DNA of 48,821 nt, from positions 1-48,821 of the forward strand of contig DALYDA010000003.1 in NCBI GenBank assembly GCA_031973435.1. Direction: 5' to 3'. How positions within the stretch are numbered: the first letter of the stretch is position 1; each line of letters begins with the position of its first letter. The translations under genes and the position numbers were made by a program. The DNA comes from Minisyncoccota bacterium. GTDB lineage: Bacteria > Patescibacteriota > Minisyncoccia > Phycocordibacterales > UBA9973. The notes beneath the pieces were generated by a model that ran no database searches, was not told the origin of the DNA, and saw only the letters and a program-made list of their open reading frames with translations. Shown here one piece after another: positions 35,487 through 48,821 of the stretch.

Positions 35487-36083
35487 TTAGTTTAGATTCA
35501 AGAGGTCTGTTGTAAAGATATTTTTGTCTAGTGCTTTGTTTTGGAAAGTGTCTGAATCATCGTTGTTCCATCTGATCCTCTTTAAAAGAGTTTTATACAT
35601 TCCTCCTGGGTTCTCTTCACTGCTTGTCTTTTGCACTGTAACGGTGAAGCTCTCTACGTCTCCCTCATAAACAATATATCTACCCATCGGCGAGATATCT
35701 GCTGATGTTGTCAAAAGGGATGTAACTCCTCCACTATCAAATACAGTTCCACTATCATTTACTACGCTGTATATGTTGTTGTAAGACATTGGATTTGAAG
35801 AAAGTGTTGGTGCTATGTATGCATCGTCACCGATTGCTTTTATGTGAAAGTTTATTTCATACATCCCCATATCGTTATTGTCCCCTGGATTCGAAACTGC
35901 AATAACTGCGTTTGCACTATCTAGTGTGACCTTTATATTGTTTGTTGCAAAAAGTGCGCTACCCAAAAATGAGTTACTAGATGAGCCCGCAACCGAGTAC
36001 ACACCATATCCTACTCCTAGTACTAAAACTACAGCGAGTAGTGTTCTTGTGGAAGCGTATTCAGGATTTTTGAAAAAATTCAT
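35487..36083 (-). CDS. N-terminally anchored hypothetical protein (MNFFKNPEYA leader)
   Basis: ATG at 36083. The leader is paralogous to that of 37299..37814. Confidence 0.6.
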   Translation of the reverse strand: MNFFKNPEYASTRTLLAVVLVLGVGYGVYSVAGSSSNSFLGSALFATNNIKVTLDSANAVIAVSNPGDNNDMGMYEINFHIKAIGDDAYIAPTLSSNPMSYNNIYSVVNDSGTVFDSGGVTSLLTTSADISPMGRYIVYEGDVESFTVTVQKTSSEENPGGMYKTLLKRIRWNNDDSDTFQNKALDKNIFTTDLLNLN

Positions 36084-36173
36084 AATATATATTCGAAAAT
36101 ATTGTTGTCTAATACCTTCAATTATACCACCAGTGTATTGCATTACCAACAAGATACTTTGATTGTAAAACTA

Positions 36174-36199
36174 AAAAGCCGATGCGATCTCGGCTTTTT
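36174..36199. terminator. bidirectional hairpin terminator
   Basis: AAAAAGCCGA-TGCGATC-TCGGCTTTTT. Confidence 0.75.
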
Positions 36200-36202
36200 A
36201 GT

Positions 36203-36334
36203 TTACTCATCGAGTCTACTTGGGAGACTCTCTACATTTACGTTTCTTGGTCCGTTGTCGAGCCATCCTAGATAGTATCCAAGTCCGAGAAATATAACGA
36301 AAGCCACGAGTAGTTTAACAGTATTTTTGTTCAT
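36203..36334 (-). CDS. possible 43-aa single-TM peptide
   Basis: MNKNTVKLLVAFVIFLGLGYYLGWLDNGPRNVNVESLPSRLDE. Ends directly at the terminator. Below the ORF-track cutoff. Confidence 0.35.
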   Translation of the reverse strand: MNKNTVKLLVAFVIFLGLGYYLGWLDNGPRNVNVESLPSRLDE

Positions 36335-36426
36335 AAATATATTGTATTACAGCAAGGGAGATATTCAAACTCGCGATACTTGACATGTCATGAGTATTCT
36401 TGTAAAATGGAGAAAAATTTTGCACG

Positions 36427-36900
36427 ATGAAAAAAATAATGTTCGTTGTAATAGCCCTTTGCGTGGCGACAATTGGCCAAAGTCAGGAGGTCGATAAAAA
36501 CATTTTTAAAAAACCTTGGATTGTAATCCTTCCCGGATTTGAGCAGTTTATGCAGAAGGTGCCACAGTCTTTTATTGCAGACAGCATTGAATTGCAGAAA
36601 AGAGCAATTGATGAAGGGGGAGTTACTCCAAAAGAAATTAAACCATTTTTTGGGGCAGGAAACTTTATGTCAATTTTGGCTGGGAATTTTTCCTACCAAA
36701 TGTTCAATAGAACTTGCTCCGGTGTAAGTCTCTCTGATTTGAAGGTAAACTATTTTCTGGTGAGTGATTCGACTGCGGGGAGCTACGTTGTAAAAATCTA
36801 CAAACGTATAGACCTTGCTGACGGCAAATGGTACATCGATGCCATGCCGGTGGAAAGCATGTTTGTTATTGTAGACGGATACATACTTGAGCCAAAATAA
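36427..36900 (+). CDS. secreted hypothetical protein
   Basis: Signal peptide MKKIMFVVIALCVATIGQSQ. Followed by a strong terminator. Confidence 0.6.
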   Translation: MKKIMFVVIALCVATIGQSQEVDKNIFKKPWIVILPGFEQFMQKVPQSFIADSIELQKRAIDEGGVTPKEIKPFFGAGNFMSILAGNFSYQMFNRTCSGVSLSDLKVNYFLVSDSTAGSYVVKIYKRIDLADGKWYIDAMPVESMFVIVDGYILEPK

Positions 36901-36937
36901 AAAAGCCTGAATTTTACATTCAGGCTTTTCTTTTTTA
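36901..36937. terminator. bidirectional terminator
   Basis: 12-bp stem AAAAGCCTGAAT/ATTCAGGCTTTT followed by a T-run. Confidence 0.8.
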
Positions 36938-36945
36938 TTTTTAGA

Positions 36946-37290
36946 TTATTCTGCTACGTTATTTTTACTATCAGAACCAATTACATTTTTTACGAAATTC
37001 CAAATAGTATTTACTAGATTGTATTCGAGCTCATCACCGTCCGCTCCTGCTTCAACAACTGTAAGCACACACAGAGCACCTGACCAGTGTCCATGCAGAA
37101 CAGATACTGTGATTTCGTCAGTTACCCCATCACCATTTGTGTCTGTACTGGTGTACTGATTGTAGTGACATTCACCGAACCCTCCGTCATCTACCGCATC
37201 TGATAGCCAGGTTGTAGCTTTTACATAATTTACTCCAAGAGTAAAGGAGACGAGAATAAGAGCTAAAACAAATATTTTTTTATTTTTCAT
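36946..37290 (-). CDS. secreted hypothetical protein with a Ca-binding-like DTNGDGVTDE loop
   Basis: Signal peptide MKNKKIFVLALILVSFTLGVNYVKA. 114 aa. Confidence 0.55.
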   Translation of the reverse strand: MKNKKIFVLALILVSFTLGVNYVKATTWLSDAVDDGGFGECHYNQYTSTDTNGDGVTDEITVSVLHGHWSGALCVLTVVEAGADGDELEYNLVNTIWNFVKNVIGSDSKNNVAE

Positions 37291-37298
37291 ATTTTGTA

Positions 37299-37814
37299 TT
37301 ATCTACTTGAAGATGGCTGTGTTTCTTCAGATCCACCATATTTTGTAATAATCTCTTCGACTTCATCAGACAGTTTTTCGTCTACCTGGCAAGTTTGTTC
37401 TCCTTCAATTGTTTTTGTTATTCCTGTTGTTATAAAGCAAGCGCCTTGCTCAGTATAAGTAACATCACACATAGGAGGGCAAATATTGCTTTCGTTACTT
37501 GCACCAGAAGAAATGCTCGCATCTTCATTTCCTTCAACATTGTCACACATAGGAGGACAGAGACTTGAATCTGATTCAACGTTTGAAACTTTGTTTCCAG
37601 TAATACAGTAATTTATGGTGCATGTCTTACCTTGGAATTCCACATCAAAAGATATTCCATTTTCTGTTTTATCTTTCGTTCCTTTTAAAATATTTCCAGT
37701 AAGACCACCAGAGTTTCCTGCAATGTTGTAAATACCCCATCCTATTCCAACAGCCAATACAAAAGCAAGAAGCGTTTTTAGTGGTGCGTATTCAGGATTT
37801 TTCCAAAAATTCAT
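37299..37814 (-). CDS. N-terminally anchored hypothetical protein (MNFWKNPEYA leader, 2x CPPMCD motif)
   Basis: Leader paralogous to that of 35487..36083. The CPPMCD motif occurs twice in a Cys-rich ectodomain. Confidence 0.6.
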   Translation of the reverse strand: MNFWKNPEYAPLKTLLAFVLAVGIGWGIYNIAGNSGGLTGNILKGTKDKTENGISFDVEFQGKTCTINYCITGNKVSNVESDSSLCPPMCDNVEGNEDASISSGASNESNICPPMCDVTYTEQGACFITTGITKTIEGEQTCQVDEKLSDEVEEIITKYGGSEETQPSSSR

Positions 37815-38897: not shown

Positions 38898-40169
38898 ATG
38901 AAAAAAATAGTTTACTTGGTTGCTGTTATAGGATTTCTTTCACTTGTAAATATATCTATGGCCGCACTGACTCCTGGTTCTGTTGTCTTTGTAAATCCAA
39001 TGGGGAAGAATAATGGTCAGGACAACGCAAACCTTTTTTGGAACGATACACTTAACTATTTAGGCATTGGAACAAATTCACCATCTTCTCCTTTGACTGT
39101 AGTTGGAAATACTCTAACTGGATCCCTTGAAATAGGATCGGGAGCAGGGAATTATCCTATTTCATATGACTCATTAACAAGCACCCTTACTTTAAATGAC
39201 ATTGGAGATGCAAAAAATATCAGAATTAAGTCTGACAACGAAAATGATTTATTTTTTGTTGATGGAATAAATGATCGTATTGGTGTAGGACTTTCAAATC
39301 CTACATACGAATTTGAGGTTGCAAACGATGGACAAAATGTCGAGATAGTAGCAGATACATACAGCACCTCACCAACATTTACAACAAAAACTGTTTTTGG
39401 TGGACGTGCAGCAAGAGGAACACGCGAGGCTCCACTTCCTGTACAGAATAACGACATACTTGCAGAATTCTCAGGTCTTGGTTATGGAAACACAGCTTTT
39501 GCTCCTTCGACTACAGCTGGTATGCGTGTTATGGCAGCAGAATCTTTTTCAGATACAACATGGGGTACAAGTTTGTTCTTTCGAACGACATCCAGAGGGT
39601 CAAACATTCTTCAAACTCGAGCTGTGATTGATGCTGATGGGAATGTTGGTATTGGTACTGACACAAGCCCAGATGTTCTTCTAGATGTAGAGAAACCAAG
39701 TGTCACAGGGGACATCGCGACATTTACAAATATAAATGGAACATGTTCGATCAACCCTGGAGTTGCAGGTGGTATCACTTGTACATCTGACGAGAACATG
39801 AAAAAGAATATTGAAAGCATAGAGAATGAAAATTCTTTGAGTATAATTAATTCTCTTCGCCCAGTAAAATATAATTGGAAAAAGGATGCAGTTGGCACAG
39901 AAAAGACATCTGGATTTATTGCCCAAGAAGTAGAAGTAATTGTTCCTGAGCTTGTTGTGAGCGAAAATGGGACAAAAAGACTTTCTATGAACGGACTCAT
40001 CCCGTATGTTGTCGGAAGTGTTAAGGAGTTGTCACGCAAAGTAGATGCGATATTTACAAAAGGACTTTCGACTCCAAAAATAGAAACAGATACTCTCTGT
40101 TTGGGGGATACTTGTATTACAGAAAAAGAATTAAAAGCTCTATTAGAATTGAAGGCAACATTAAATTAG
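38898..40169 (+). CDS. fibre protein with C-terminal S74 intramolecular-chaperone (tail-fibre/endosialidase-type) domain
   Basis: Signal/anchor sequence. The block TSDENMKKNI...LRPVKYNWK...SGFIAQEVEVIVPELV...LIPYVVGSVKEL (from about nt 39785) matches peptidase_S74 as I know it. Confidence 0.8.
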   Translation: MKKIVYLVAVIGFLSLVNISMAALTPGSVVFVNPMGKNNGQDNANLFWNDTLNYLGIGTNSPSSPLTVVGNTLTGSLEIGSGAGNYPISYDSLTSTLTLNDIGDAKNIRIKSDNENDLFFVDGINDRIGVGLSNPTYEFEVANDGQNVEIVADTYSTSPTFTTKTVFGGRAARGTREAPLPVQNNDILAEFSGLGYGNTAFAPSTTAGMRVMAAESFSDTTWGTSLFFRTTSRGSNILQTRAVIDADGNVGIGTDTSPDVLLDVEKPSVTGDIATFTNINGTCSINPGVAGGITCTSDENMKKNIESIENENSLSIINSLRPVKYNWKKDAVGTEKTSGFIAQEVEVIVPELVVSENGTKRLSMNGLIPYVVGSVKELSRKVDAIFTKGLSTPKIETDTLCLGDTCITEKELKALLELKATLN

Positions 40170-40202
40170 TAGACAAAATTTTATAAATTAAAAATAAAAA
40201 AA

Positions 40203-40231
40203 CCGCAAACTATACGGGTTGCGGGGTTTTT
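40203..40231 (+). terminator. rho-independent terminator
   Basis: CCGCAA/TTGCGG stem followed by GGTTTTT. Confidence 0.5.
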
Positions 40232-40557
40232 GAATTTACGATTGTTTCTTCACCGTTTAAAGTGAAGCTAATAAAGTGATTTTCTGATTGGATGATTTTT
40301 TCAATCACTCTTTCGGAAAAAATAATTTCAATTTTTTTTGCCATTAATTCTTTTGGCTCTGGCGCGTTGCGGTAGTTTAGTGCTACTTCCGAGAACTGCG
40401 CGGGTGTTAACTTAACTGGACCTCCTTCCATGGACCACATGCTTCTCATGGTCCTTGCTATGTGTTGAGCCAACTTCTTGGCCTTTTTTCTGTTCATCCC
40501 TATTGGAATAACAGATGTTATGTTTATTGGGTTGTTCATCAATTGTTTTAATTTCAT
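40210..40557 (-). CDS. hypothetical protein
   Basis: ORF 40210..40569. ATG at 40557 (MKLKQLMNN) is plausible. No motif recognised. Confidence 0.45.
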   Translation of the reverse strand: MKLKQLMNNPINITSVIPIGMNRKKAKKLAQHIARTMRSMWSMEGGPVKLTPAQFSEVALNYRNAPEPKELMAKKIEIIFSERVIEKIIQSENHFISFTLNGEETIVNSKTPQPV

Positions 40558-40687
40558 ATACAATAACACTAAATATATTTTTAGTCAATCATGGGAAGTT
40601 TGATATTTACATAAGTTACAGAGAAAAGCAGGAGCTAAATATGGGTGGGATTTTTTGACGGATTTGTGATATATTCTGGATACATAT

Positions 40688-41389
40688 ATGGAAGAAAACA
40701 AAGGAAAACTTCATCCGATAACAATAGCAACAAACGACGCGATTCGTGTTTTTACTGAGCTTGGTTTTGAAGTTGCAGTGGGGCCTGAACTAGAAGAAGA
40801 GTGGTACAACTTCGACGCGCTGAACGTTTCCAAAGATCACCCAGCTCGTGACATGCAAGATACGTTTTGGATAAAAGGACAAGAAGGGAAGGTTCTTCGT
40901 ACTCATACAACAAGTGCAACTGCACGTGCCATAGAAAAGGCAAACAAAGATGGAGCACTTCCTGCAGCATATGTTTCTATTGGAAAAGTTTTTCGAAATG
41001 AATCTACTGACGCAACACATGAAATGCAATTCTTCCAGATAGATGGTGCGATGATCGGGGAGAATATAACCATCTCAAACCTAAAAGCTGTTTTACTTCA
41101 TTTTTATAGAAAAATGTTGGGAGAGGATGTCGACATTCAGCTCAGGCCAAGTTTTTTTCCATTCGTTGAGCCTGGACTTGAAGTTTGGATAAAATTCGGA
41201 GATAGATGGCTTGAAGTTATGGGAGCTGGACTACTTCACCCACAGGTGTTAAAAAATCTTGGTCTTGATCCAGAAAAATATGGGGGATTTGCTTTCGGTG
41301 GAGGACTAGACCGAGTGTTGATGGTTAAACACAATATCCCAGATGTGAGGTTTCTTTACCAAGGAGATTTGAGAATTAATCAGTTTTAG
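40688..41389 (+). CDS. pheS: phenylalanine--tRNA ligase alpha subunit, short form (catalytic core only)
   Basis: Class II motifs HPARDMQDTF, FRNESTDATH..FFQ and GAGLLHP...GFAFGGGLDR. Only 233 aa. Confidence 0.9.
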   Translation: MEENKGKLHPITIATNDAIRVFTELGFEVAVGPELEEEWYNFDALNVSKDHPARDMQDTFWIKGQEGKVLRTHTTSATARAIEKANKDGALPAAYVSIGKVFRNESTDATHEMQFFQIDGAMIGENITISNLKAVLLHFYRKMLGEDVDIQLRPSFFPFVEPGLEVWIKFGDRWLEVMGAGLLHPQVLKNLGLDPEKYGGFAFGGGLDRVLMVKHNIPDVRFLYQGDLRINQF

Positions 41390-41390
41390 T

Positions 41391-41732
41391 ATGAAAGTAG
41401 AAACGAAAAGATTTATATATTCTGGAATACTAGCAATTCTGACACTTGCTGTGCTAATATTTTTTTCACCAAAAATAATATTGGTTATCCCATTAATGAT
41501 ATTAGTAAGTTTCCTTATGTGCATTGTAAATCCAACAAGAACATATTTAATTGTTTTTGCAGTATCTTTCGTGCTCGGCACTGCCTCAGAAATGGTTGCC
41601 ATACATTACGGTCTTTGGTCTTATAGAGATGTATTTTTTAAAGGGGTGCCCGTTTACCTTCCTTTTGTTTGGGGAAACGCAGGACTTTATATCTTGAGTG
41701 TTTATAATTTTGTAAAACAATATGAAAATTAG
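41391..41732 (+). CDS. small 3-4 TM membrane protein inserted between pheS and pheT
   Basis: 113-aa hydrophobic ORF. Starts 2 nt after the pheS stop and overlaps the pheT start by 11 nt. Confidence 0.55.
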   Translation: MKVETKRFIYSGILAILTLAVLIFFSPKIILVIPLMILVSFLMCIVNPTRTYLIVFAVSFVLGTASEMVAIHYGLWSYRDVFFKGVPVYLPFVWGNAGLYILSVYNFVKQYEN

Positions 41733-43542
41733 TTACAACTGGCTCAAATGGTACGTTCCTGAATTGCCCGAGGCGGAAAAACTCTGGGATGTTTTCACTT
41801 TTCATCTTTGTGAGGTTGAGAGTGTAGATAAAATGCCAGACGGAGACACTATTTTCGATATCAACATCTTGCCAAATCGCGCGCATGACTTGCTCAATCA
41901 CCAGGGAGTCGCACAAGAACTTTCTGCACTTTTGGGTATCGAGTATAAAAGTCCTGTAGAGATGTACAAAATACCCCCGCTTCGCCAAGGCTTCGCAGGG
42001 CAGGCTCTATCCGTATCTATTGAGTCTACTAAATGTCGTCGATACATGGGACGAATTGTCCGTAATGTAAAAGTTGGACCATCGCCAGAGTGGGTGGTAA
42101 AGCACCTAGAATCTATTGGGCAAAAGAGCATAAACAATGTTGTCGACGCGACAAATATTGTTATGTTTGATTGTGGAAATCCAACACATGTTTTTGATGC
42201 GAAAAAAGTAGGCAATAGTATCCGAATAAAAGAAACAGGTAGTGTAAAAAGGGTGAGCCTTTTGGGGGGAGAGGAGAAAGATTTGAAAGAAAATGATTTA
42301 GTTATCACTGATGGGGAAGACAACGTTCTAGCGATTGCGGGAGTAAAGGGTGGAACACACGCTGAAGTAGATGAAAATACAACAGAAATAATACTCGAAG
42401 TTGCAAACTTCGATCCAGTTACAGTGCGAAAGACAGGACGAGGAATGGGACTTTTCACAGATGCTATAAAGAGATTTGAAAACGATCTGTCACCAGTACG
42501 CGCAGAGTATGCGATGCGTGAGCTTTCTGCAACAATACTCGAGATGTGTCCTGAGGCAGAGTTCGAAGATATAGTGGATATATATCCTGAAAAGGAAAAA
42601 TGGGAAACACCAAATAAAATTGAAATAACATCTAGTTATATAAATCAAAAGCTCGGTTCAGAATTTACTGATTCTGAAATAGAAAATGTTTGGAAGAGAA
42701 TGAAGTTTGAATATACAAATGAGAGTGGAAACTTTGTCATAACAGTTCCGCTACTTAGGCTAGATTTAACAGGTAGACATGATCTTGTAGAAGAAGTGGG
42801 AAGGGTTATTGGTTATGACAAGGTAGAGGGTAATCTTCCTCAGATCAAATTCAATACAAAGATAAATGAAACATTTTACAAAATATTGTGGGCAAAAAAT
42901 AAATTTGTAGCGGACGGATATAGAGAGGTTATGACATATTCATTTACAAAAAAAGGTGAAGTATATGTCGCATATGGAGCAAAAGGGAAAGAAGCACTTC
43001 GCACAAATCTATCTGACGGAATAAAACAAGCATACGAATTAAATAGGCTAAATGCTCCACTACTAGGAGAAAGCGAAATAAAAATTTTTGAAATTGGAAA
43101 TGTTTTCCCGTCTGCTGGTGTTGAAAAGACTCACGTGTCCTGGGTGGATAAAAAGGGAGTACAAGAGATGACACTTGAAGATTTTACAAAAAGCGTTTCA
43201 GTTAGTGATTCATTTAACCCAGTTTTGATCGAGAGCAAAAACCAAACAGCTGACAGTTTTTCTTCTTGGTCAGTTTACCCATTTATTGTGCGTGATATTT
43301 CTATGTGGGTTCCAGTGAATATCGATTCTATAGATGTCTCTCCTGTAATTTGTGAGGAAATGGGGGATCTTGTAATCAAAGGCCCAACACTTATAGATTC
43401 TTTCGAAAAAGAGGGCAAAAAGAGCTTGGCTTTTCGCCTAGTTTTCCAAAGTTTTGATCGTACACTTACTGACGAAGATGTAAATATTCCAATGCAAAAA
43501 ATCACCACTTCACTCAAAGAAAAGGGTTATGAAATAAGGTAA
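41722..43542 (+). CDS. pheT: phenylalanine--tRNA ligase beta subunit, short form
   Basis: MKISYNWLKWYV start, B3/4 region (INNVVDATNIVMFDCGNPTHVFD), B5 and C-terminal FDX-ACB-like domain. 606 aa. Confidence 0.85.
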   Translation: MKISYNWLKWYVPELPEAEKLWDVFTFHLCEVESVDKMPDGDTIFDINILPNRAHDLLNHQGVAQELSALLGIEYKSPVEMYKIPPLRQGFAGQALSVSIESTKCRRYMGRIVRNVKVGPSPEWVVKHLESIGQKSINNVVDATNIVMFDCGNPTHVFDAKKVGNSIRIKETGSVKRVSLLGGEEKDLKENDLVITDGEDNVLAIAGVKGGTHAEVDENTTEIILEVANFDPVTVRKTGRGMGLFTDAIKRFENDLSPVRAEYAMRELSATILEMCPEAEFEDIVDIYPEKEKWETPNKIEITSSYINQKLGSEFTDSEIENVWKRMKFEYTNESGNFVITVPLLRLDLTGRHDLVEEVGRVIGYDKVEGNLPQIKFNTKINETFYKILWAKNKFVADGYREVMTYSFTKKGEVYVAYGAKGKEALRTNLSDGIKQAYELNRLNAPLLGESEIKIFEIGNVFPSAGVEKTHVSWVDKKGVQEMTLEDFTKSVSVSDSFNPVLIESKNQTADSFSSWSVYPFIVRDISMWVPVNIDSIDVSPVICEEMGDLVIKGPTLIDSFEKEGKKSLAFRLVFQSFDRTLTDEDVNIPMQKITTSLKEKGYEIR

Positions 43543-43585
43543 TTTTGTTGATAACTTTTACAGAATTCCTTGCTATAATATACAG

Positions 43586-46500
43586 GTGAAGAGATTTAAG
43601 AAAAATTCTGCTCTGGCAGTTATAATCTCGGTACTTTTTTTGTCTGCAATCATAAAAACATATGCAGTTCCTTCGACATATTTTACCGCTGGTCAAACCC
43701 TAGATCCCGTAGCAGATGATATAACCTGTGCACCAGGGGTCTGTAGTGTGTACCCAATTTCAATAGGAGATCCTGTCGGAACGGGAGATGATAACTCTGT
43801 TTTGTTTATAGACACAAACGGGGACATCGCAGAAGATAGTGCAAACTTTTATTTTAATGATTCAACTGACACTCTATATACTGATGATATTACTCTTGCA
43901 AATAATTTAGAAATTACAACAACTACTAGTTCAACGGTTGGTGTTGTTACAAAAGATGCCACAAGATTTTTGCATACATACAAACCGGCTGGAACAAATG
44001 ACAACTTGTTTTTTGGTAAAGGTTCTGGAAACTTTACATTGTCTGCTACATCAAACTTCAATGCCAATACTGGTATTGGCGAGAACACTCTAGCAAATCT
44101 TTCTACAGGGTATTTCAATACTGCACTCGGTACAGCAGCTCTGAGATCTACGACTACTGGAAATAATAATACTGCTGTTGGTTTACAAGCAGGTAACCGG
44201 ATATCTTCAGGTACATACAATATAGCCATTGGACGTGATGCTCTTTACGGGGCCGCTTCTCCATTTAGTGCATCAGGGTCATATAATATCGCAGTAGGAT
44301 CTGCTACGCTTTACGCACTCTTAACAGGAGAAAACAATGTTGCACTTGGACATCAGGCTGGACTCAATTCATCTTCAGCAAGTAATAACGTATTTATCGG
44401 ATATGAGGCAGGGCACGATATTACAACAGAATCAGGAAATATTTTTATCGGATATCAAGCTGGTGCTGATGCAACAGGATCGGATCAGTTGTATATAGAG
44501 AATTCAAATAGCCCGACACCTCTTATTTTCGGAGATTTTGCAAATGATTATGTAAATATAAACGGAAGGCTTGGTGTTGGAACATCGCCCTTGTTGAAAT
44601 TGGACGTAGCGGGGTCCGGTAGATTTACAGGATCAGCTACTTCTGTTTTGACTGGATCAATCGACCCTACTGCTTCTACTACAGTTACAGGAGTGGGAAC
44701 CCTGTTTTCAACAGAACTTGTTGTGGGTGACAGGATTACAGTTTCAGGAGAATCACGTACGGTTACTGCAATAGCATCGGATACAAGTTTGACAGTAGAT
44801 ACAGCCTTTACTGATACAGCCGACGATGTTTCACCAGATAAACTCGCAGCGATTTTTGTCACTCGAGCATCTGATGGGACACTTGCCATGGTTCAGAATA
44901 ATTTTGGAAATTTTGGTCTAGGTACAAGTAGTCCAGATTTCGAAGTAGAAATAGTCTCGGCAACCCAAAACGTAGAAATCGTTTCTTCTGGATACAATGG
45001 AAGAAAGCCTGTTTTTGCGGGGCGAAGTGCTAATGGAACTGAAGCTTCACCCTCAGCAACATCTGCAAACGATATTTTGGCTGAATTCGCAGGGCAGGGC
45101 TACGGAACTACAGGTTTTGCTCCGTCTACAACTGCTGGTATACGCGTAGTAGCAGAAGAAGCATTTGATGATGCAGGATATGGTTCACAGCTTTTGTTTA
45201 GAACAACACCAAACAATTCAACAACACTCAAATCACGAATGGTCATTATGGCTGATGGAAACGTTGGAATAGGTGACACAACTCCAGACGATTTGTTAAA
45301 TCTTGAATCATCTACAAATACCGGGATATCCATCTCTGCAATCGGAGCAGATGTTGATCCGTATGTAAAATTTGAACTAGTAGACGGTACATCATCTTTT
45401 ATTATGGGAATCGATGATTCTGATAGCGATAGTTTTAAAATTTCTACCACAGCTCTTGGCACAAGTGATCGGTTTATTATTGATTCGTCTGGAAACATAA
45501 ATGTGGGAGGTGATACTACTCCAGGATCACTTTTTTCTGTAGGTTCCACATCACAATTCCAAGTTGGCTCTTCTGGATCAATTGATGCAGTAACGACGAT
45601 AATGACTTCAGGGGCGGTAACAATAGCTTCTTCAGGAACTGGCGTGTTGAACGTTGGTACAACAGCAGGTACTTACAGAACAACAAACGCAGGTGGAAAC
45701 ATATCACCTCAGGCAGTATTTGATGTTGATAACTCCAACTCTTCTTCAGGATCACAAGCATATATATTTGATACTACAAATGGATTTGTTTTTAGTGCAG
45801 CTAACGGAACACGTCGTATAGCAAGAGCATCTATTGATATAATAAATTTAACAAATACAGCTGGATCAGAAACAGGAGATCTTGCCTTTTTTACAAAACC
45901 TTCTGGCTCTGCGATTACAGAGAAGATGAGAATAGACTCAACAGGAAAGGTTGGTATAGGTGATATTTCTCCAGACTACCTTTTGGACATAGAAAATACA
46001 GGATCAGATACAGATATATTTGCACTTACGGATTCTGATGGATCATGTCTACATAATCCGGAAGCCGGAGCAGAATCTGTGACATGTTCTTCAGATGAGA
46101 GATTAAAGGAAAATATCACTGATGCAGATGAATCTCTACCTTATTTGATGGACTTTAGAATCCGTGAATATGATGTGCGTGCATCAGGTGATCACATGAT
46201 GGGAGTAATCGCTCAGGAAATAATGGAAATACACCCAGAACTAGTGGCTGTCGGAGGAAATGGTTACTATACTGTAGAACTTCCAAGCACGTGGGCAATT
46301 GTAAAGGGAATTCAGGAGTTGAATCTAAAGGTTGAAGATATTTCTTCGTTATCACTTGAAAATGAAAATACCCTAGGTGCACGTCTTGTTGCATGGTTTG
46401 CTGATAGCGCGAATGGAATACAAACAATTTTTGCAAATGTAATACATACAAACAAAGTTGAGACAAACGAGCTTTGTGTTGGAGAAGTCTGTGTTACGGA

Positions 46501-46726
46501 GGAACAATTTTTGGAAATTGTAGGTAATCAAAATAATAATCCTTCTCCAATCAGCGAAGAAGTGAATATTCCGAGCGAAGAAGGTGACATAGTTCCACAA
46601 GAGGAAACAGTCGATGAAAATGTCCCTCCATCAGAGGAAGAGGTTCCTCCAGAAGAAACCCTCGATGAAAATGTCCCTTCAATAGAGGATCAAATTTCCC
46701 CAGAAGAAATATCTCCAGAAAATTAA
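43586..46726 (+). CDS. large fibre protein with YadA-head-like repeats and an S74 intramolecular-chaperone domain
   Basis: Anchor sequence, repeats such as NTAVGLQAG/NIAIGRDAL/NVALGHQAG/NVFIGYEAG, and an S74 block SSDERLKENI...GVIAQEIMEIHPELV (from about nt 46091). GTG start. Confidence 0.8.
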   Translation: MKRFKKNSALAVIISVLFLSAIIKTYAVPSTYFTAGQTLDPVADDITCAPGVCSVYPISIGDPVGTGDDNSVLFIDTNGDIAEDSANFYFNDSTDTLYTDDITLANNLEITTTTSSTVGVVTKDATRFLHTYKPAGTNDNLFFGKGSGNFTLSATSNFNANTGIGENTLANLSTGYFNTALGTAALRSTTTGNNNTAVGLQAGNRISSGTYNIAIGRDALYGAASPFSASGSYNIAVGSATLYALLTGENNVALGHQAGLNSSSASNNVFIGYEAGHDITTESGNIFIGYQAGADATGSDQLYIENSNSPTPLIFGDFANDYVNINGRLGVGTSPLLKLDVAGSGRFTGSATSVLTGSIDPTASTTVTGVGTLFSTELVVGDRITVSGESRTVTAIASDTSLTVDTAFTDTADDVSPDKLAAIFVTRASDGTLAMVQNNFGNFGLGTSSPDFEVEIVSATQNVEIVSSGYNGRKPVFAGRSANGTEASPSATSANDILAEFAGQGYGTTGFAPSTTAGIRVVAEEAFDDAGYGSQLLFRTTPNNSTTLKSRMVIMADGNVGIGDTTPDDLLNLESSTNTGISISAIGADVDPYVKFELVDGTSSFIMGIDDSDSDSFKISTTALGTSDRFIIDSSGNINVGGDTTPGSLFSVGSTSQFQVGSSGSIDAVTTIMTSGAVTIASSGTGVLNVGTTAGTYRTTNAGGNISPQAVFDVDNSNSSSGSQAYIFDTTNGFVFSAANGTRRIARASIDIINLTNTAGSETGDLAFFTKPSGSAITEKMRIDSTGKVGIGDISPDYLLDIENTGSDTDIFALTDSDGSCLHNPEAGAESVTCSSDERLKENITDADESLPYLMDFRIREYDVRASGDHMMGVIAQEIMEIHPELVAVGGNGYYTVELPSTWAIVKGIQELNLKVEDISSLSLENENTLGARLVAWFADSANGIQTIFANVIHTNKVETNELCVGEVCVTEEQFLEIVGNQNNNPSPISEEVNIPSEEGDIVPQEETVDENVPPSEEEVPPEETLDENVPSIEDQISPEEISPEN
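46604..46705 (+). repeat. imperfect 2 x 51-bp tandem repeat encoding an acidic E/P-rich tail
   Basis: GAAACAGTCGATGAAAATGTCCCTCC... compared with GAAACCCTCGATGAAAATGTCCCTTC.... At protein level, ETVDENVPPSEEEVPPE / ETLDENVPSIEDQISPE. Confidence 0.7.
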
Positions 46727-46779
46727 AATATCAATCTAACTGTATCGCAAGATATTAATAGTTGATATAATGTTAAGGT

Positions 46780-48821
46780 ATGACTTTTTGTCGAAAGCAC
46801 ATTTTTTTAGGTGCACTAATCTCAACACTTTTCTTAGGGGCAGTTATAAAAACATATGCTGTTCCTTCAACATATTTTAATGCAGGTGAAACTCTAGATC
46901 CTGTAGCAGATGATGTAACTTGTGCACCTGGAGTTTGTAGTGTCCACTCTCTTTCTATTGGAGATACTGTTGGTAGTGGAAATGCTGCATCAGTCCTTTT
47001 CATCGATGATGCTGGGTTATTGGGTGAGGACAATGCAAATTTCCTGTATGATGCAACTAGCCGATATCTGCATTCAGACAATCTTGCACTTGCAAACAAT
47101 TTGGAAATCACCACAACTACTAGTTCAACTGTAGGTGTAATAACCAAGGATAATGTTAGATTCATACACACATATAAGCCTGCTGGAACAAATGACAACT
47201 TGTTTATAGGAAAGACAAGTGGTAACTTTACTCTGGCGGCTACATCAAATTTTAATGGAAATATCGGTATCGGACAGAGTGTCCTGACAAATCTATCAAG
47301 CGGATATTTTAATACTATATTAGGTGCTTATGCAGGAAACTCATTAACCACTGGATACTCAAATGTTTTTGTTGGTACACAGGCATCAAGAAACAATGCT
47401 ACTGGTTTGAGAAATGTCGCGGTTGGTGACGCTGCGCTCTACGGTAGTGGGCATTCGAATCATTCCTCCACGGACAATGTTTCAATTGGACAAAGTTCGA
47501 TGTATTTTACATCAACATCAGCAAGGAATATATCTATTGGTACAGAAGCTGGATACAACAATAGTTCTGCTTCAGACAATGTCTTTATTGGTTACCAATC
47601 TGGTCACGATATAACTACTGAGTCAGGCAACGTTTTTATTGGATACTTATCTGGTTCGGATGCAACTGGTTCGAATAAGTTGTATATAGAAAACAGTGCT
47701 AGTGAATCTCCGCTTATCTATGGAGATTTTGCTAGTAACTATATAAGAATAAATGGAGATTTAGGTGTTGGGGTTGTCCCTGATCAGTCACTTGATATTG
47801 ATGGAAATTTTGAGTTTCCTGCAACGGCTAGTTCATCGGTTGGAGTAATAATGCAAAATGGAGGAAGGTTCATACACACATACGGTACACAGAATTTATT
47901 TCTTGGTTTAAATGCAGGAAATTTCACCACATCAGGAGGAGGCGGAAATATTGGAATTGGTGAATCCACTTTGACCTCATTGACGATTGGTACTGAGAAT
48001 ATAATTATGGGAACTAGTGCAGCTGTAAATTTAACTTCTGGTTCAGGTAATGTTGCCATCGGTGTTGCTTCTTTGCAAGGATTTGGTACAGGTTCAAACA
48101 ATGTCGCTGTAGGTAATTTGTCTGGTCAATACTTAATCTCCGGTTCGAACAATATTTTTATTGGTTCGCGTGTGGGAACTTCCGATGATTTTTCTATGAG
48201 TAATAGCATTATTATTGGTAATAATTATGCTTTCTCAGATGATAGTTTAGATGCTACTACGAATATACTTGTAATTGATGGAGATATATCAGCAACCCCA
48301 CTTGTTTACGGAGACTTTACACTTAATACATTTAGCATAAATGGAGATTTTGGTGTTGGTGATACTACGCCTGACTACCTTGTTGATATCGAGGATATAT
48401 CAGTAGATACGGACATATTTGCCCTCACAGACAATGATGGCTCGTGTCTACATGATCCTGAAGCGGGAAGTGAAGTTGTAACTTGTTCCTCAGATGAAAG
48501 ATTAAAAGAAAACATAGTTGATGCCAGTGGAACTCTCGAGTATTTTAGAGGATTTAATATTAGGGAATATGACGTTGTTACAAGTGGAGATCATATGTTC
48601 GGAGTAATCGCTCAAGAAGTAAATGAAGTTTATCCCGAGTTAGTTAAGTTAGGCTCAAATGGGTACTTGTCAGTAGAAATACCTAGTACATGGGAAGTTA
48701 TCAAGGCAATACAGGAACTAGATCTTTCTATTGTAGATCTCACATCACTTGATTTAGAAAATGAGAACTCGCTAGCAAGCATGTTGATCGGGTGGTTTGC
48801 AGATTCAACAAACGGAATACA
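46780..48821 (+). CDS. third fibre paralogue with S74 domain; 3' end runs off the window
   Basis: Absent from the ORF track because it has no stop in the window. My translation from ATG 46780 (MTFCRKHIFLGALISTLFLGAVIKTYAVPSTYFNAGETLDPVADDVTCAPGVCSV...) parallels 43586..46726. S74 block SSDERLKENIVD starts at about nt 48490. Frame stays open to 48821. Confidence 0.8.
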   Translation, partial: MTFCRKHIFLGALISTLFLGAVIKTYAVPSTYFNAGETLDPVADDVTCAPGVCSVHSLSIGDTVGSGNAASVLFIDDAGLLGEDNANFLYDATSRYLHSDNLALANNLEITTTTSSTVGVITKDNVRFIHTYKPAGTNDNLFIGKTSGNFTLAATSNFNGNIGIGQSVLTNLSSGYFNTILGAYAGNSLTTGYSNVFVGTQASRNNATGLRNVAVGDAALYGSGHSNHSSTDNVSIGQSSMYFTSTSARNISIGTEAGYNNSSASDNVFIGYQSGHDITTESGNVFIGYLSGSDATGSNKLYIENSASESPLIYGDFASNYIRINGDLGVGVVPDQSLDIDGNFEFPATASSSVGVIMQNGGRFIHTYGTQNLFLGLNAGNFTTSGGGGNIGIGESTLTSLTIGTENIIMGTSAAVNLTSGSGNVAIGVASLQGFGTGSNNVAVGNLSGQYLISGSNNIFIGSRVGTSDDFSMSNSIIIGNNYAFSDDSLDATTNILVIDGDISATPLVYGDFTLNTFSINGDFGVGDTTPDYLVDIEDISVDTDIFALTDNDGSCLHDPEAGSEVVTCSSDERLKENIVDASGTLEYFRGFNIREYDVVTSGDHMFGVIAQEVNEVYPELVKLGSNGYLSVEIPSTWEVIKAIQELDLSIVDLTSLDLENENSLASMLIGWFADSTNGI

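Follow-up and report, generated by a model that had tools for sequence, protein, structure and literature searches.

Three probable cell-surface fibre genes with S74 chaperone domains among the housekeeping genes of a patescibacterium

The window analysed here comprises bases 1-48821 of contig C3 (DALYDA010000003.1; 53,566 bp), part of a patescibacterial genome of 672,087 bp in 28 contigs that is 92.7% complete. Three open reading frames (ORFs) in the window, here called gene 1 (423 aa), gene 2 (1046 aa) and gene 3 (running past the window's right edge), encode proteins ending in an S74 domain. These proteins are probably the cell's own exported fibres, built from phage tail-fibre modules, cleaved by the S74 domain and likely to bind a host.

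Published work on host attachment by ultra-small episymbionts concerns mainly type IV pili. A literature search found no paper on S74 fibres in Patescibacteria, and public annotation gives only the name 'tail fiber domain-containing protein'. A widespread family of exported phage-type fibres is a candidate for host recognition: the S74 family PF13884 occurs in 61% of the sampled relatives from the same family or order (37 of 61 genomes) and in 23% of a phylum-wide sample (70 of 301). The ORFs concerned are nearly always long (147-8840 aa). Among eight fetched loci with several S74 domains, seven carried two adjacent S74 ORFs and one a single ORF with two S74-like matches.

S74 domains, fibre shafts and signal peptides

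All three proteins exceed the curated Pfam cut-off of 22 bits for PF13884 (Peptidase_S74), at 59.2 bits for gene 1, 33.8 for gene 2 and 38.4 for gene 3, and a six-frame search of the genome confirmed the matches. The first-pass annotation of this DNA had placed S74 genes at these positions and proposed the profile search as a check. The catalytic context it had read, (T/S)SDE(N/R)(M/L)K, takes the form TSDENMK in gene 1 and SSDERLK in the other two genes. The Ser-Lys dyad (SDxxxK) is intact in each protein (S297/K302, S836/K841 and S571/K576, respectively), and its S, D and K are invariant in an alignment of 51 sequences from the gene 1 family and more distant relatives. Solved S74 structures matched by a profile of the gene 1 family include S16 gp37 (6F45, 1e-18), MyRF (7DC3, 5e-18), the GP4 tail fibre and the GA-1 neck appendage (3GUD).

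The S74 domain lies C-terminal to beta-helix modules of the type seen in the mosaic adhesive trimer (MAT) fibres of Bdellovibrio bacteriovorus (Caulton et al. 2024, PMC10769870). MAT proteins carry signal peptides and are displayed on the predator surface; 13 of the 21 end in an S74 domain that self-cleaves (Bd3182 at S782), tips are swappable, and one MAT binds a prey glycan (PMC10769870). A sequence search of the PDB with gene 2 returned a single match, Bd1334 (8OML/8ON4, E = 5e-9). The gene 1 family profile matches the MAT shafts of Bd1334 (8OML, 4.8e-19), Bd2133 (8OND, 6.7e-18), Bd2439 (1e-11) and Bd3182 (3e-11), the structures reached being 8OML, 8OND, 8OL4 and 8OJN. Supporting this, the capping-loop motif V-G-(G/N)-x-x-x-P-x-x-x-L, common to MAT/S74 proteins and MyRF (PMC10769870), is present in all three window proteins (e.g. 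GNVGIGTDTSPDVLLDV). For an AlphaFold2 (AF2) model of gene 1, the best Foldseek matches are Bdellovibrio MAT fibres and T5 pb1 (4UW8), with probability 1.0 and low template modelling (TM) scores, the latter as would be expected of one chain removed from an intertwined trimer.

The likeness to MAT fibres extends further. Both are encoded by chromosomal genes and have signal peptides (the proteins here are mostly of ~1000 aa, gene 1 being 423 aa), and both combine homologous shaft modules and the same capping loop with a C-terminal SDxxxK-bearing S74 domain. Both also form sets of paralogues within one genome that keep their ends and exchange their distal parts, in organisms that live by cell contact. 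However, where all 21 MATs share a beta-rich N-terminal domain of ~130 aa (PMC10769870), the window proteins have a short, lineage-specific leader and Cys-hairpin peptide. Arrays of 17-residue repeats, and an additional Cys hairpin and acidic tail after the chaperone, also set them apart from MATs.

A similar comparison can be made with phage fibres and spikes such as the K1F endosialidase CIMCD (3GW6), T5 pb1 (4UW8), S16 gp37 (6F45) and GA-1 (3GUD), which also place a Ser-Lys S74 domain after a trimeric beta-helix. Repeat and shaft modules are held in common with phage fibre PHROGs. Unlike the phage proteins, those of the window carry signal peptides and are encoded among housekeeping genes, with no phage genome around them. 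The closest matches in phage collections reach 24-47% identity and cover single modules only.

The repeats in genes 2 and 3 have a period of 17 residues and match phrog_6002, phrog_4636 (tail spike) and phrog_23837, as well as genes annotated as tail fibre or tail spike in phages of Pelagibacter, Roseobacter, Flavobacterium and Achromobacter (tblastn). They found no PDB sequence match and no Foldseek match in the PDB; a structure search of BFVD gave borderline matches only, to viral S74 and fibre proteins. The repeats had been described as YadA-head-like, and a few homologues of the window proteins bear the JGI label 'trimeric autotransporter adhesin'. There is a general resemblance, in that short repeats rich in Gly and Asn form a predicted beta-solenoid in a trimeric adhesin. 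YadA-like adhesins, however, have 14-residue repeats and a membrane-anchor barrel, which the window proteins lack, and no Pfam match to YadA_head, Hep_Hag or YadA_anchor was obtained, so a YadA-like head was rejected. The same 17-residue arrays, at 35-47% identity and often with an S74 end, occur in 'tail fiber domain-containing' proteins (PF26696 + PF13884) of Bacteroidota, Cloacimonadota and others. These equally uncharacterised proteins differ in their N-termini and have a canonical short chaperone that ends in a coiled coil, without Cys hairpin or acidic tail.

At the start of each of the three proteins, a basic n-region precedes a hydrophobic core and a site of the A-x-A type, the features of a predicted cleavable Sec-type signal peptide. 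The site is kept across the leader types of the family as TYA, AYA, AFA or VFA. In gene 1 the core has a 15-aa Kyte-Doolittle (KD) mean of 2.39, and the AF2 model places a helix at residues 2-21. All cysteines lie in short pairs (C283/C295 and C401/C406 in gene 1; C48/C53, C821/C834 and C964/C969 in gene 2), a pattern expected of extracytoplasmic proteins. In genes 2 and 3 a C-x4-C hairpin stands at both ends of the precursor, with the sequence TCAPGVCSV on the N-terminal side and LCVGEVCVT downstream of the chaperone; a trimer would thus have six cysteines around its axis at each of the two hairpins.

Beyond the point at which phage profile alignments end, genes 1, 2 and 3 have a common C-terminal extension with the consensus '...WFAD..NGI..IF...V.T..LC(V/I)..(D/V/T)C(V/I)T...', after which genes 2 and 3 have an acidic tail of 60-100 residues rich in proline (21 D/E, 11 P and zero K/R in the final 61 of gene 2). 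The fragment after the cleavage site is 127-215 aa long in the window proteins, compared with ~100-130 aa in Bacteroidota homologues, from which the extension is absent on sequence comparison. A database search with the extension alone returned only the query itself, and it was traced in relatives by its motif instead: the Cys hairpin appears in about 16 of 32 S74 ORFs taken from them. The Cys hairpin and acidic tail after the chaperone are a lineage-specific feature.

The genomic context is that of a cellular chromosome. To the left of the tandem pair, the genes include those for an AddA-type helicase-nuclease and Ogt, four small unknown ORFs, and those for TrhO, gene 1, PheS and PheT; FtsW, FolD, SecD, SecF, antiporters and NDH-2 are encoded farther left in the window. 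The fibre genes have a GC content of 0.38-0.40 in a genome of 0.385. None of ten neighbouring ORFs has a PHROG structural match, in keeping with the earlier remark that no phage genes are nearby, and a search of the whole genome for Terminase_6N, HK97 capsid (Phage_capsid) and Phage_portal found none, with working positive controls. A prophage or tailocin cluster just beyond the right edge, named by the first-pass annotation as a ground for abandoning its proposal, was looked for, and from gene 3 to the contig end only a terminator, gyrB, a small ORF and thrS were found. That proposal, of chromosomal fibre genes in a reduced genome rather than prophage remnants, is borne out by this context and by the predicted export.

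Conservation, mosaicism and the leader cassette

Because each gene has full-length orthologues of its own (69-99% identity), the paralogues in the window are judged to be old and under purifying selection. The gene 1 orthologues fall into 15 clusters that are 69-99% identical to it and 329-429 aa long (400-429 aa in all but one), including a syntenic copy beside pheS in CP064973 (75.5% identity). This complete genome of 705 kb is among the nearest named relatives of the window proteins, these relatives belonging to Candidatus Nomurabacteria/Paceibacterota; on this basis the organism is placed among the ultra-small Patescibacteria (CPR). Gene 2 is 74-77% identical to QQR76999.1, a 'tail fiber domain-containing protein' of Ca. 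Nomurabacteria from the same genome, and gene 3 is 80-83% identical to two orthologues of 784-785 aa (P0016 and P0017). Among orthologues, the shaft and the region before the cleavage site are the most conserved parts, and the leader and acidic tail the least.

The proteins are mosaics. Gene 1 is the short version: it has a signal peptide, shaft modules, the S74 domain and a Cys hairpin but lacks the acidic tail; with gene 2 it shares a 144-aa module (53% identity) and the S74 region. Genes 2 and 3 share a layout in which the leader is followed by an N-terminal stretch to residue ~135, a 17-residue array closed by a 'LYIENS..PLI.GDF' motif, a variable middle, and then the conserved pre-cleavage region with its Cys loop, S74 domain and extension. 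Identity between them is 60% in the N-terminal 353 aa and 66% in the C-terminal 159 aa. Pairwise alignment confirmed the differing middle sections noted at first reading, and the near-identical N-terminal anchors quoted there agree at 30 of 34 positions. The middle of gene 2 consists of a unique stretch, the beta-helix module at residues 443-580 and a second unique stretch; in gene 3, an internal duplication of the repeat unit stands in their place.

It had been suggested that the tandem copies diversify by recombination with each other. The window does not bear this out: genes 2 and 3 are 61% identical in nucleotide sequence over their shared N-terminal part, third codon positions agree at 44% and are near saturation, with the protein ends still conserved, the longest exact run is 24 nt, and each gene has its own orthologues (74-83%). 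Identity measured in 60-nt windows rises to 85% in the first ~150 nt alone, and is 72% over 388 nt. Recent gene conversion between the two, at 61-72% nucleotide identity, was rejected on these figures.

A different pattern emerges for the first ~60 codons, which encode the signal peptide and a peptide up to 'IGD/E'. At least four types of this cassette exist, and which type a gene carries depends on its genome and not on its orthogroup. Between gene 3 and its orthologue P0016, identity is 50% in this part and 92-97% downstream; between gene 3 and its paralogue gene 2, the corresponding values are 68% and 58%. For gene 2 and its orthologues P0003 and P0004, they are 40-49% and 73-88%. Tandem pairs in other genomes repeat this. 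In the CP064973 pair the cassettes are 89% identical in amino acids, with a 173-nt tract that is 100% identical, and the downstream parts 30-37%. The pair of a second relative (locus L016) agrees at 91% over 258 nt, both copies sharing genome-specific substitutions, and a third pair (G013) at 70% in the first ~60 codons and 32% downstream. These values show concerted evolution of the 5' cassette between paralogues, recombination having made it uniform within a genome, with an older signal in the window itself. The 3' Cys-hairpin types are also shuffled relative to orthology, and middle modules have been inserted, lost or replaced between lineages.

A search with the N-terminal module against 1.84 billion representatives gave 89 clusters at E <= 1e-3 and seven at E <= 1e-10, and many of the 89 match only the internal 'SVLF..D..NF..D' joint. 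Since so few clusters match, the N-terminal anchor is taken as a narrow, lineage-specific element. Because leaders are matched among the paralogues of one genome, they suggest a fit to a cell-specific partner; neutral gene conversion between adjacent copies is a possible cause of the same matching.

The tandem pair occupies different housekeeping sites in related genomes. In CP064973 the order is thrS-gyrB-pheT-pheS-(gene 1 orthologue)-ogt-addA, with 128 bp between pheT and gyrB and the site empty. Its tandem pair, one member of which is the gene 2 orthologue, is flanked by a CarboxypepD_reg-like gene and rpsL, as it is in a second genome; in the window genome, the slot upstream of rpsL is empty (a 99-bp spacer). 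In a genome of the same genus (G001), an S74 gene precedes gyrB as in the window, and gene 1 is absent between trhO and pheS. No mobile-element signatures or flanking repeats were seen at the tandem-pair junctions by eye, no systematic search having been made. New here are the genome-following first ~60 codons, the shifting sites of the tandem pair and the lineage-specific Cys hairpin with acidic tail.

Two side observations concern these loci. A protein of ~630 aa, CarboxypepD_reg/SpaA-like (Ig-fold), is encoded directly upstream of the tandem S74 pair in two relatives (L015 6309-8210, L016 6293-8182); the window genome has a copy with 41% identity (C1:36683-38461) and rpsL directly after it. 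This protein may be a fibre partner or a further surface protein. Secondly, no match for pheT was found in G001, whose scaffold breaks (100 N) between pheS and the fibre gene upstream of gyrB; the missing pheT is attributed to this assembly gap and not to a real absence. The 'single-contig' genome of G001 (ends L019, L020) thus breaks at pheS...fibre-gene...gyrB, and in the window contig gene 3 is interrupted by a 10-N gap. It seems that these fibre genes are difficult for assemblers.

Proposed assembly and competing explanations

The S74 literature and the MAT work are the basis on which export, trimerisation, cleavage, retention at the surface and binding of a host are inferred. Each chain would be exported unfolded via Sec, in line with its cleavable signal peptide and with the genes for SecD and SecF in the window. 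Outside the membrane, without an ATP-driven chaperone, the S74 domain would join three chains and template the folding of an intertwined beta-helical shaft. The chaperone would then cut itself off just before the catalytic Ser by means of the Ser-Lys dyad, and the fragment would carry the Cys hairpin and the acidic, proline-rich tail. In gene 1, the predicted mature part is residues ~23-296 and the predicted released fragment 297-423. The mature trimer would be held on the cell by its N-terminal end and expose a distal tip formed by a disulphide-type loop, C-x11-12-C, before the cut; in gene 2, this would be the loop C821...C834. By analogy with MAT fibres, the trimers most likely bind the surface of the episymbiont's host, and three genes may provide three specificities.

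Two observations weigh against host-binding fibres of this kind. A hypervariable receptor-binding tip was not seen among orthologues, in which the pre-cleavage tip is one of the best conserved regions. When genes 1 and 2 were compared by BLASTP with a full-length Bd1334-like protein from a Bdellovibrio genome (L022:1998-5357), shaft modules alone could be aligned and nothing in the N-terminal 700 residues, although very remote homology could escape BLASTP. The AF2 models, which are of monomers, have predicted local distance difference test (pLDDT) values of 70.5 for gene 1 and 66.7 for a second model. Because the alignment is confined to shaft modules, outside the domain that defines MATs, the window proteins are taken to function as S74-type MATs do and to have shaft and chaperone ancestry in common with them, without being strict members of that group. 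The cell of the window organism is not known to have an outer membrane, in contrast to Bdellovibrio.

Among the alternatives, surface fibres with a role other than host recognition fare best, though this is unlikely. They might form a protective or spacing coat, mediate self-aggregation or biofilm formation, act as phage decoys, or be glycan-cleaving, tailspike-like enzymes that open the host envelope. S74 domains also cap enzymes, such as endosialidases, and BFVD returned K1 lyase-like matches. The conserved tips fit this explanation as well, and a domain in only 23% of the phylum-wide sample is not a universal need of episymbiosis. However, no catalytic domain was detected (the Pfam scan of the three proteins returned S74 and one weak sub-threshold match), and several paralogues per genome with swapped middles fit a recognition repertoire. 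The nearest characterised cellular relatives, the MAT fibres, are adhesins (PMC10769870).

It is improbable, more so than a different role at the surface, that the trimers are released in soluble form, for instance as lectins or as binders resembling bacteriocins. In favour are a signal peptide of cleavable appearance, the lack of a BLASTP match to the MAT anchor domain, and the failure to find an LPXTG motif, a lipobox, a membrane helix at the C-terminus or a wall-binding domain that could be recognised. The peptide after the signal, on the other hand, is conserved and the same among the paralogues of one genome, which suggests docking on a genome-specific partner, and MAT fibres, whose anchor is equally unexplained, are surface displayed (PMC10769870).

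A prophage, tailocin or phage-derived particle, with true tail fibres assembled in the cytoplasm, was rejected as very improbable: although phage relatives exist for every module beyond residue ~60 (many tail-fibre PHROGs for the S74 region, tail spike and virion structural PHROGs for the 17-residue repeats) and the NCBI name of the orthologues speaks of a tail fibre, cytoplasmic tail fibres lack Sec signals such as these proteins carry, no phage gene surrounds the fibre genes on the contig, the 92.7%-complete genome has no terminase, capsid or portal, orthologues are conserved (one of them syntenic), the same arrangement adjoins ribosomal-protein genes in two relatives, and the nearest phage matches are distant and limited to single modules.

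Exported, host-binding fibres of the cell itself therefore remain the preferred explanation. If it holds, Bdellovibrio predation and patescibacterial episymbiosis, which are unrelated, both drew on the phage receptor-binding toolkit, by convergence or exchange. With its self-contained S74 chaperone, a trimeric fibre could fold once exported through Sec, independently of the cytoplasm, and the genome-specific leader cassette offers a handle for finding the anchor. A more far-reaching model is possible but doubtful. The leader and N-terminal peptide (~60 codons) may be a genome-specific docking cassette, matched by gene conversion to one anchor, with shafts, tips and tails swapped between lineages and gene pairs moving between housekeeping sites; the whole would be a large family of phage-derived, self-cleaving fibres, particular to Patescibacteria, that sets host range. 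This would make it a cellular counterpart of phage host-range modules.

Feature coordinates and neighbouring genes

The positions of the features are collected in Table 1.

Table 1. Features of the three fibre genes and their surroundings (window coordinates)
Feature	Position	Strand	Basis
Gene 1, 423-aa S74 fibre protein (predicted export)	38898..40169	+	ORF; PF13884; syntenic orthologue in CP064973
Gene 1 signal peptide, MKKIVYLVAVIGFLSLVNISMA, predicted cut before AL	38898..38963	+	Read from sequence: basic n-region, hydrophobic core, S-M-A cleavage-type site
Gene 1 beta-helix shaft module, residues 128-271, ending in capping-loop motif GNVGIGTDTSPDVLLDV	39279..39710	+	53% identity to gene 2 residues 443-580; MAT profile matches
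Gene 1 Peptidase_S74 core; Ser297 39786-39788, Lys302 39801-39803	39786..39956	+	Pfam; six-frame search
Gene 1 C-terminal extension beyond phage-type chaperone, Cys hairpin KIETDTLCLGDTCITEKEL, C401/C406	40074..40166	+	PHROG alignments end at residue ~385
Hairpin with T-runs on both sides, bidirectional-terminator-like	40199..40232	.	Between gene 1 and convergent 119-aa ORF; terminator-like site on minus strand, 40217-40203
Extended -10-like element (TGCTATAAT), 6 nt upstream of gene 2 GTG start	43574..43579	+	Read from sequence; no Shine-Dalgarno; no -35, so unlisted by consensus scan
Gene 2, 1046-aa S74 fibre protein (predicted export)	43586..46726	+	ORF; PF13884; full-length orthologues 74-81% identity
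Gene 2 leader cassette, signal peptide and N-terminal peptide to 'IGD', residues 1-62, ...IKTYA (predicted cut) VPSTYFTAGQTLDPVADDITCAPGVCSV...	43586..43771	+	Identity pattern follows genome, not orthogroup
Gene 2 array of 17-residue repeats (N-[VI]-x-[IV]-G...), closing motif QLYIENS..PLIFGDF	44003..44560	+	17-residue spacing; PHROG and phage tblastn matches
Gene 2 MAT-like beta-helix module, residues 443-580	44912..45325	+	phmmer vs 8OML/8ON4 (Bd1334); 53% identity to gene 1
Gene 2 Peptidase_S74 core, Ser836 and Lys841, preceded by Cys loop C821...C834	46091..46246	+	Pfam; six-frame search
Gene 2 Cys hairpin (KVETNELCVGEVCVTEEQF; C964/C969) and acidic, proline-rich tail	46451..46723	+	Read from sequence
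Extended -10-like element (TGATATAAT), 8 nt upstream of gene 3 ATG	46766..46771	+	Read from sequence
Gene 3, S74 fibre protein (predicted export), 680 aa inside window	46780..48821	+	ORF (continues past the window, 46780->48821); PF13884; orthologues P0016, P0017
Gene 3 leader cassette, residues 1-62, gene 2 type, unlike type of gene 3 orthologues	46780..46965	+	50% identity to P0016 here vs 92-97% downstream
Gene 3 first 17-residue repeat array	47197..47751	+	Repeat spacing; PHROG matches
Gene 3 second 'TSS..GV..RFIHTY + 17-residue repeats' unit	47806..48339	+	tblastn 37% identity to own first unit, 36% to gene 2
Gene 3 Peptidase_S74 core, Ser571 and Lys576	48490..48648	+	Pfam; six-frame search

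The window ends at a 10-N scaffold gap within gene 3, beyond which 107 more residues run to contig position 49157 (~789 aa in total). The bases flanking the gap, CA[N10]AT ATC TTC, agree with the '...NGI-QN-IFTK...' of homologues, so gene 3 is very probably intact at this length. No S74-less relatives of the fibre modules were found elsewhere in the genome (tblastn with nine segments).

The start codon of gene 1 lies 1 nt after the stop of trhO, and the gene is therefore probably co-transcribed with this housekeeping gene. The extended -10 element TGnTATAAT upstream of genes 2 and 3 (43571-43588 and 46763-46782) recurs at gyrB (contig C3 ~49200-49280), in each case 6-8 nt before the start codon, and a Shine-Dalgarno sequence is lacking at all three. 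This short distance to the start codon, without a Shine-Dalgarno, suggests that the gene 2, gene 3 and gyrB transcripts are leaderless.

The four ORFs between ogt and trhO (35487-37814) have no Pfam or PHROG match. Two of them, both encoded on the minus strand, begin with a common membrane segment, MNF(F/W)KNPEYA..., with 62% identity over 34 aa, and diverge thereafter. The block is absent from CP064973, where ogt directly adjoins the gene 1 orthologue, marking a variable spot beside the fibre gene. The 119-aa ORF convergent with gene 1 (40210-40569, minus strand) has no family match. Between pheS and pheT, a hydrophobic ORF of 113 aa (41391-41732, plus strand) overlaps the pheT start.

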